DNA of 64,000 nt from a virus. A program made the position numbers and the translations under genes. The DNA lies in the IMG/VR virus record IMGVR_UViG_3300042291_001568, positions 1 to 64,000 of that record, one strand, 5' to 3'. The notes under the pieces were generated by a model, which saw only the letters and a list, made by a program, of their open reading frames with translations, searched no databases and was not told the origin of the DNA. Shown here piece by piece: positions 29,475-29,733 of this stretch. Position 1 is the stretch's first letter, and every line of letters begins with the position of its first letter.

Positions 29475-29557
29475 GTTTGAGGTAGCGCCGGCTGAGCGCA
29501 GGCCCCCCGCCTGCCAGCCGGTGCCACCGCATTCTCTCGGGAATGTATAATGAACTC

Positions 29558-29733
29558 ATAACAAGAATTGGTAGCGACGCGCAAACGCGAAAGCAAACCA
29601 GGCGGGTGCCGGGTCTTTCACTCGGTTAGTACAGGCAGCAGGAGAGCGCTCAGGAGCAGCGCCGCAAGGTAATAATTCGTACGACCTTGCGGACATGCCA
29701 ACTATGCCAGTTCCGGTAAGCAAGCGGCCCGCC
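29558..29733 (+). ncRNA. candidate multi-stem structured RNA cassette (about 175 nt)
   Basis: Promoter copy at 29534; no RBS or ORF; stems TGGT/ACCA, GGCGGGT/GCCCGCC, CCGGGT/ACTCGG, GCGCT/AGCGC, CGCAAGGT/ACCTTGCG. Confidence 0.55.

Follow-up and report, generated by a model that had tools for sequence, protein, structure and literature searches.

Between a gene specifying a 108-aa protein and another specifying a 99-aa protein there lies, from 29536 to 29739, an ORF-less cassette of phage DNA, one which carries a promoter along with sequence for a folded RNA of approximately 175 bases. Positions as given here are those of ‘the window’, that is, of the whole of the stretch of DNA that was analyzed (64,000 nt), which makes up the first 64 kb of an IMG/VR virus record with a length of 116.8 kb. 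A preliminary description of this DNA, based on its sequence, had listed a promoter, a 5' hairpin, a closing helix, three internal hairpins, GGCA and UGCC tracts, and then a next promoter, and all of these are found where that description had placed them (Table 1). The downstream, 99-aa protein has no relatives among GenBank phages or in IMG/VR, and Pfam and PHROGs searches with eight of the small proteins of this neighborhood returned nothing usable.

Table 1. The ORF-less cassette and its surroundings, in window coordinates
Feature	Position	Strand	Remarks
Upstream 108-aa gene	29148-29474	+	Weak match to RecE-like phrog_434, C-terminal part
Terminator-like long hairpin, C5 loop, without U tract	29486-29523	+	3' of 108-aa gene
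Promoter CTCGGGAATGTATAAT, extended -10	29536-29551	+	One of the 42 copies
Predicted transcription start	29558	+	7 nt past -10; inferred from position of the A of ATG in leaderless cassettes
5' hairpin UGGU...CGCG-CAAA-CGCG...ACCA	29569-29600	+	Lineage-specific
P1, 5' strand GGCGGGU	29601-29607	+	7 pairs with 29727-29733
P2 hairpin CCGGGU-CUUUC-ACUCGG	29609-29625	+	6 pairs, one base after P1
Joining strand J2/3	29626-29641	+	Holds invariant block AGGCAGCAG
GGCA tract	29634-29637	+	
P3 hairpin GCGCU/AGCGC	29646-29662	+	Window lineage only
P4 central hairpin CGCAAGGU/ACCUUGCG	29663-29691	+	Variable between lineages
UGCC tracts	29696-29699 and 29705-29708	+	
Joining strand J4/1	29713-29726	+	
Invariant block CGGUAAGCA-n-GCGGCC	29714-29729	+	Reaches into P1 3' strand
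P1, 3' strand GCCCGCC	29727-29733	+	
Next promoter CTAAGGAAGATATAAT	29740-29755	+	
Downstream 99-aa gene	29780-30079	+	No assigned function

The large terminase of this phage shares 84% identity with its counterpart in Actinomycetia phage DSL-LC01, and approximately 60% with the large terminases of Microbacterium phages. The genome of phage DSL-LC01 is itself an assembly from a lake metagenome (PMC10611076). All of the DNA runs which hold the region are lake-water metagenomes as well, and the phage would appear from these comparisons to be an uncultured lake-water phage of Actinobacteria, with that host group being a predicted one.

From 17.5 to 43 kb, the window possesses 42 near-identical copies of a promoter-like cassette, CTnnGGnnnnTATAAT, with every one of these copies on the + strand. 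When expressed as a degenerate pattern, the motif has 41 exact matches versus 0 expected, with a looser pattern giving the 42. The usual layout of these cassettes consists of promoter, A/C-rich leader, AAAGGACA (the ribosome-binding leader), and then a small ORF. With about nine of the cassettes, an ATG is present 6 to 7 nt past the -10 box instead of the AAAGGACA leader. ATGs that are found 6 to 7 nt past TATAAT without a Shine-Dalgarno leader are those at window positions 26916, 27973, 31590, 33987, 34488, 36376, 37569, and 42967. Such cassettes probably give rise to leaderless mRNAs. Leaderless starts are typical of Actinobacteria, and the leaderless cassettes thus lend support to an actinobacterial host.

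Coding by the cassette between 29536 and 29739 is not evident, that is, there is neither an RBS-led ORF nor a leaderless ATG, with the triplet found at the leaderless start position, 29558, being ATA rather than ATG. The only + strand frames within this cassette are of 28 aa (from an ATG at 29543) and of 34 aa (from a TTG at 29568), and neither has a counterpart in the homologous element of L003. The central region of the element, furthermore, ranges from 49 to 72 nt across variants and has no common ORF, with this variation in length excluding coding. The earlier reading of the cassette as lacking an ORF thus holds.

Homologues of the element were sought by reading the DNA 3' of relatives of the 108-aa gene, of which there are many. 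Five distinct variants are found, representing three lineages: that of the window (the same as L428) along with L418, to which the window is approximately 93% identical; that of L003 (identical to L004 and L167) along with the close L427; and that of L419 (identical to L420). All five are located directly 3' of a 108-aa gene homologue, and 5 to 7 nt before a promoter. Most relatives which carry the 108-aa gene are without the element, which implies that the element is dispensable, and in these remaining relatives the equivalent slot holds either a small protein gene or the hairpin alone. Two examples of the former are L417:622-931, which has a ribosome-binding leader, and L423:339-646, which is Cys-rich and leaderless. 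The presence of protein genes in this same slot indicates that it is a general point of cassette insertion.

Searches that were made independently of the 108-aa gene added little to this distribution. A blastn search of 29400-29800 against 50,697 GenBank phages gave no match, and the real matches from pattern scans of IMG/VR consist of only two contigs, both of the L003 type. Pattern matches in L133, L134, L439, and L457-459 are in coding DNA and were rejected as due to chance. With JGI metagenomes, at least one real match, L167, is among the matches listed, and the family may be larger than its five distinct members. A pattern scan of GTDB representative genomes gave 71 matches, none of which was better than an E of 0.09 as judged by model. 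The covariance model R2, as applied to 50 related phage records, drew a response from the L003 record alone, and as applied to 151 genomes of one actinobacterial family (that of a Pontimonas genome) found nothing at E ≤0.1. That the element mimics a host RNA is not supported, with no homologous RNA found in the 151 actinobacterial-family genomes nor in the GTDB representative genomes that were searched.

By its energy of folding, the sequence from the window does not stand apart from shuffled sequences (z of -1.46 for 189 nt and of -0.70 for the 134-nt core), and the case for a real structure therefore depends on the comparison of homologues. The alignment of the five variants, A5, was built via the single-sequence model; MAFFT put P2 and P1 one column off. 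A5 consequently is fitted to a model which already contained P1 and P2, a bias in their favor. Invariant blocks flank both of these helices, and this fixes the register of the alignment. P1 (seven pairs) and P2 (six pairs) are paired in 65 of 65 cells across the five sequences, with double-sided changes seen at five pairs in total (three in P1, two in P2). One of the P1 pairs is C-G, A-U, or G-C, depending on which of three lineages is considered, and the changing pairs of P2 are C-G/U-A and G-U/A-U/G-C. The covariation score that was observed is not attained by any of 500 shuffles, pairing falls to between 23 and 53% when the 3' partners are slid by one to three columns, and RNAalifold recovers P1 and P2 independently. 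P4 differs in both length and sequence in each lineage, with compensatory changes of G-C to A-U (window to L418) and of C-G to U-A (L003 to L427). Covariation among homologues, as the preliminary description had suggested checking, thus is as would be seen with a maintained structure, that is, with P1, P2, and the long central hairpin all kept via compensatory changes.

The joining strands hold two blocks, AGGCAGCAG and CGGUAAGCAnGCGGCC, of 9 and 16 nt, which are single-stranded and invariant. Given comparison of closest pairs of sequences, substitutions are located in loops, in the variable center, and in the upstream, terminator-like hairpin, with the 5' domain, P1, P2, and both invariant blocks remaining identical. 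An invariant U-G pair within P1, as well as G-U pairs elsewhere, are valid only on the + strand, and that strand thus is the RNA strand. The 5' hairpin is identical in the window and in L418, with the L003 and L419 types possessing a different 5' hairpin. P3 is found in the window lineage only and is weakened in L418 by the loss of one pair, and so cannot be retained as a feature of the family. Nor is the GGCA/UGCC pseudoknot that had been proposed conserved, with the second UGCC lost in L418 and no such tracts in L003 and L427. RNAalifold offers an alternative in which the invariant GCAG is paired with the 3' strand of P4, a pairing with no compensatory change and one broken cell. What remains as conserved is a core of approximately 115 to 135 nt, a three-way junction which consists of P1, P2, P4, and two long joining strands. 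The covariation would appear to be real but thin, coming as it does from five sequences of three lineages, and the invariance of the blocks could be due in part to recent common descent. Together these comparisons nevertheless make it quite probable that the structure is under selection on the + strand.

The promoter found 3' of P1 is of the same sub-type, CTAArGAnGnTATAAT, in all variants. Behind that promoter are genes for four unrelated proteins, as taken across variants, and thus the element is not a leader which serves a single gene. With the upstream gene fixed and the downstream genes varying, the element instead belongs to a module, one consisting of 108-aa gene, hairpin, and RNA. A TATAAT promoter before the RNA is present only in the window/L418 lineage. 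Its place is taken in three of the five variants by CTCAAGGTTTAGGT, which is conserved, and the promoter cassette consequently is not the general part of the element that it was initially described as being. Neither in the window nor in the L003 record is CTCAAGGTTTAGGT a repeated motif, so it does not represent a second class of promoter. Without a promoter of their own, these three variants probably have their RNA made by read-through from the 108-aa gene. As there is no canonical terminator at the element or after P1, the RNA also may not be a discrete molecule.

The hairpin which follows the 108-aa gene varies in its stem by lineage, with its C-rich loop kept. Indeed, a C-rich loop (C4 to C7), without a U tract, is seen at the same place in L003, L005, L416, L417, L419, and L427, and termination may not be the sole role of this hairpin. 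Loops rich in C bring to mind the actinobacterial 6C RNA. A search of Rfam provided no match for the hairpin.

Low-depth contigs from four metatranscriptome runs, as mapped on 28000-32500, lie over neighboring genes, with these contigs carrying no strand or end information. One, 29452-29602, extends over the hairpin and the promoter and then 45 nt into the RNA, though with DNA carry-over possible. The rest of the cassette, 29603-29739, is covered by no contig, a gap which, given the low depth of all of the contigs, says nothing about expression. A further contig joins 30212 to 30807, thereby skipping 594 nt and the genes between two cassette leaders. Such a skip is as expected from the gain or loss of whole cassettes by recombination at the repeated leader/promoter, that is, if relatives do so. 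A scan of the phage genome for antisense targets of the two invariant blocks found duplexes with energies of -21 to -24 kcal/mol, values which stand without a background set.

Among the 4227 models of Rfam 15, which include riboswitches, ribozymes, 6S, 6C, tmRNA, SRP, Y-RNA-like, and phage motifs, the only gathering-level match to the window is a tRNA at 14847. A permissive search of 28950-29800, and of the L418, L419, and L427 loci, gave nothing overlapping the element at E ≤10. With no match to any variant, whether to ribozyme models or to Rfam models otherwise, the suggestion of a structured ncRNA of unrecognized family is borne out, and the element, as judged by its sequence, would be a phage-encoded structured small RNA that is in no curated family.

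Known small RNAs of phages include the small stable RNAs of phage T4, sRNAs of the Pseudomonas phage PAK_P3, DicF of a prophage, and the anti-sRNA, AgvB. The element resembles phage early sRNAs in being a short, ORF-less unit within the early, host-RNA-polymerase-read part of a lytic-type genome, and in being dispensable as well as patchy among relatives. It differs from them, however, in having no similarity to any, either in sequence or by Rfam model, and in being a three-way junction with invariant joining strands rather than a seed-bearing hairpin sRNA. A further difference is that the predicted host of the element is an actinobacterium. Actinobacteria are generally held to lack Hfq.

The put RNA of phage HK022 is similar in being a structured, ORF-less RNA found just 3' of an early promoter, without its own terminator, and with read-through onward. 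That RNA consists of two simple stem-loops of approximately 70 nt, whereas the element has a core of 115 to 135 nt which is branched. In addition, only two of the five variants have a promoter immediately upstream, and strong terminators are not found downstream. The element matches put in position only, and then only in the window lineage.

Three other resemblances were considered and rejected. As with twister and other small self-cleaving ribozymes, the element is of similar size, has a branched fold, and possesses in the window GGCA and UGCC tracts that are capable of pseudoknot formation. Twister, though, is marked by a conserved double pseudoknot and conserved core nucleotides, there is no match to it or to any other Rfam ribozyme model at E ≤10, and the tracts in question are retained by just one of the five variants. 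Retron msr-msd RNA likewise has ends which are paired by a short inverted repeat, with internal hairpins, including one which is long, and a length of about 150 nt. P1 and the hairpins of the element thus are superficially like the a1/a2 and msr/msd of a retron, an anatomy which is unspecific. The 116.8-kb record has no reverse transcriptase (PF00078, to which control genomes respond), and none adjoins the element in any variant. A generic riboswitch, lastly, is contradicted by the presence of a promoter 5 to 7 nt after P1 and by the four unrelated downstream proteins.

How then might the element function? We suggest that window 29558-29735, on the + strand, would specify a structured ncRNA belonging to a small, so far undescribed family, one found in a sub-lineage of the uncultured, Actinobacteria-infecting phages of lake water. 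The window phage would produce this RNA from its own early, host-type promoter, with the RNA in other lineages instead probably co-transcribed with the upstream 108-aa gene. The RNA then would act as a free molecule early in infection, with its invariant junction strands, going by their anatomy, potentially serving as a contact surface for a host or phage protein, that is, with the RNA being a decoy, a sponge, or a scaffold. It presumably would not act by long antisense pairing, nor as the leader of one gene. As a whole, this conserved structured ncRNA, which is probably free and protein-binding, is the best explanation that we have, and one for which we see the chances as about even. That the RNA is both free and recognized by a protein is, when taken alone, more tentative; invariant joining strands, variable outer hairpins, independence from downstream genes, and a strong early promoter dedicated to the RNA in one lineage are what such an RNA fits best.

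A ‘cis’ role within the upstream module is a lesser though still appreciable possibility. Here the element would be a structured 3' UTR or, in the window lineage, a 5' leader, and would provide protection from exonucleases, processing, or a put-like alteration of RNA polymerase, the latter allowing read-through of hairpins in later cassettes. In every variant, after all, the element adjoins the 108-aa gene and the hairpin which follows that gene, there is no terminator to separate it from the next gene, in the three variants without their own promoter the RNA would be part of the upstream mRNA, and the one metatranscriptome contig extends from the upstream gene through hairpin and promoter into the 5' hairpin. 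Most homologues of the 108-aa gene nonetheless do without the element, and single-stranded, invariant blocks of 9 and 16 nt are in excess of what a protective hairpin would need. The window lineage, moreover, dedicates to the element a promoter of consensus quality, and canonical terminators which would need overriding are not found.

It is unlikely, by comparison, that the element is a cassette which has decayed to functionlessness, or a spacer, with its helices due to chance or left over and its invariant blocks a product of recent shared ancestry. The narrow distribution of the element, with its absence from most relatives, would be in keeping with such decay, as would the ordinary fold energy of the window sequence, the seeming loss of the -10 box by the L003 type, and the ATA at the leaderless start position, which is one base from ATG. 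The frame from that ATA, however, is just 23 codons. Decay also does not readily account for five double-sided pair changes, with none broken in P1 or P2, while the center has diverged freely, nor for closest pairs of sequences having retained identical 5' domains, P1, P2, and junction blocks while the adjacent hairpin was changed several times.

Less likely still is a new class of RNA that either senses a ligand or, as a ribozyme, cleaves itself, with the junction strands forming its pocket or active site. A three-way junction whose joining strands are invariant, and whose outer hairpins vary, is an architecture that might be so employed, and the alternative pairing of GCAG with the P4 3' strand could be a switch. 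That pairing, though, is the one with a broken cell and without compensatory change, the GGCA/UGCC pseudoknot is not conserved, and no variant has an Rfam riboswitch or ribozyme match at E ≤10. Nor is there an expression platform, as the element is followed immediately by a promoter and then by genes that vary with lineage. A small protein, of 34 aa from the TTG at 29568 or 28 aa from the ATG at 29543, is very improbable, since these frames, though open, lack both the AAAGGACA leader and a leaderless ATG, have no counterpart in L003, and would have to accommodate between-lineage differences in central length that are not multiples of three.

The element is not the only ORF-less cassette of the window. 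A second cassette is present at 29002-29100 (core of approximately 29026-29091), with relatives in L337-L342. Within 29018-29100, three hairpins are located in a run of 65 nt for which identity is 100% in six IMG/VR relatives and 94% in a seventh, with proteins merely about 78 to 88% identical among the phages which share the cassette. In three unrelated flanking contexts, this second cassette begins 8 to 9 nt past a -10 box (TATAAT or TAAAAT). It has no match in Rfam, and a search of 401 genomes from one family of Actinobacteria likewise gave nothing real. The cassette, going by that identity, would appear to be an RNA gene of about 66 nt which is under strong constraint, and is more strikingly conserved than the 29536-29739 element. 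Its conservation, following promoters, implies that RNA cassettes are a real feature of this group of phages.

A third ORF-less cassette is found at 31784-31932, where a leaderless ATG gives 8 codons. It possesses a 10-bp closing helix, GUACCAGCGC/GCGCUGGUAC, around a hairpin, with a z of -3.7 and 0 of 200 shuffles as stable. It has no BLAST match in 50 related records and is covered by one metatranscriptome contig (31779-32033). At least two of the three ORF-less cassettes thus are under clear constraint, of sequence or of structure.

A broader possibility, and a rather doubtful one, is that the element represents a new RNA fold which freshwater Actinobacteria phages express free at the start of infection, and which captures a host factor, e.g., a defense or RNA-binding protein. 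The element would then belong to a larger, unrecognized set of RNA cassettes (three of them here), each driven by a promoter, with phages trading these cassettes at the repeated promoters much as they do small protein genes.

To our knowledge, the ncRNAs of Actinobacteria-infecting phages are almost unexplored, with uncultured lake phages annotated for their proteins alone. Given an array of strong and identical early promoters, an ORF-less cassette is conspicuous, and RNA genes in such phages therefore are easy to see. Should the element be merely a transcript-stabilizing 3' or 5' structure, then interest in it would be local. The invariant junction strands, at the same time, would provide a direct handle for pull-downs, and if these RNAs do act on host factors, then they would represent a new layer of take-over or counter-defense in abundant freshwater bacteria.
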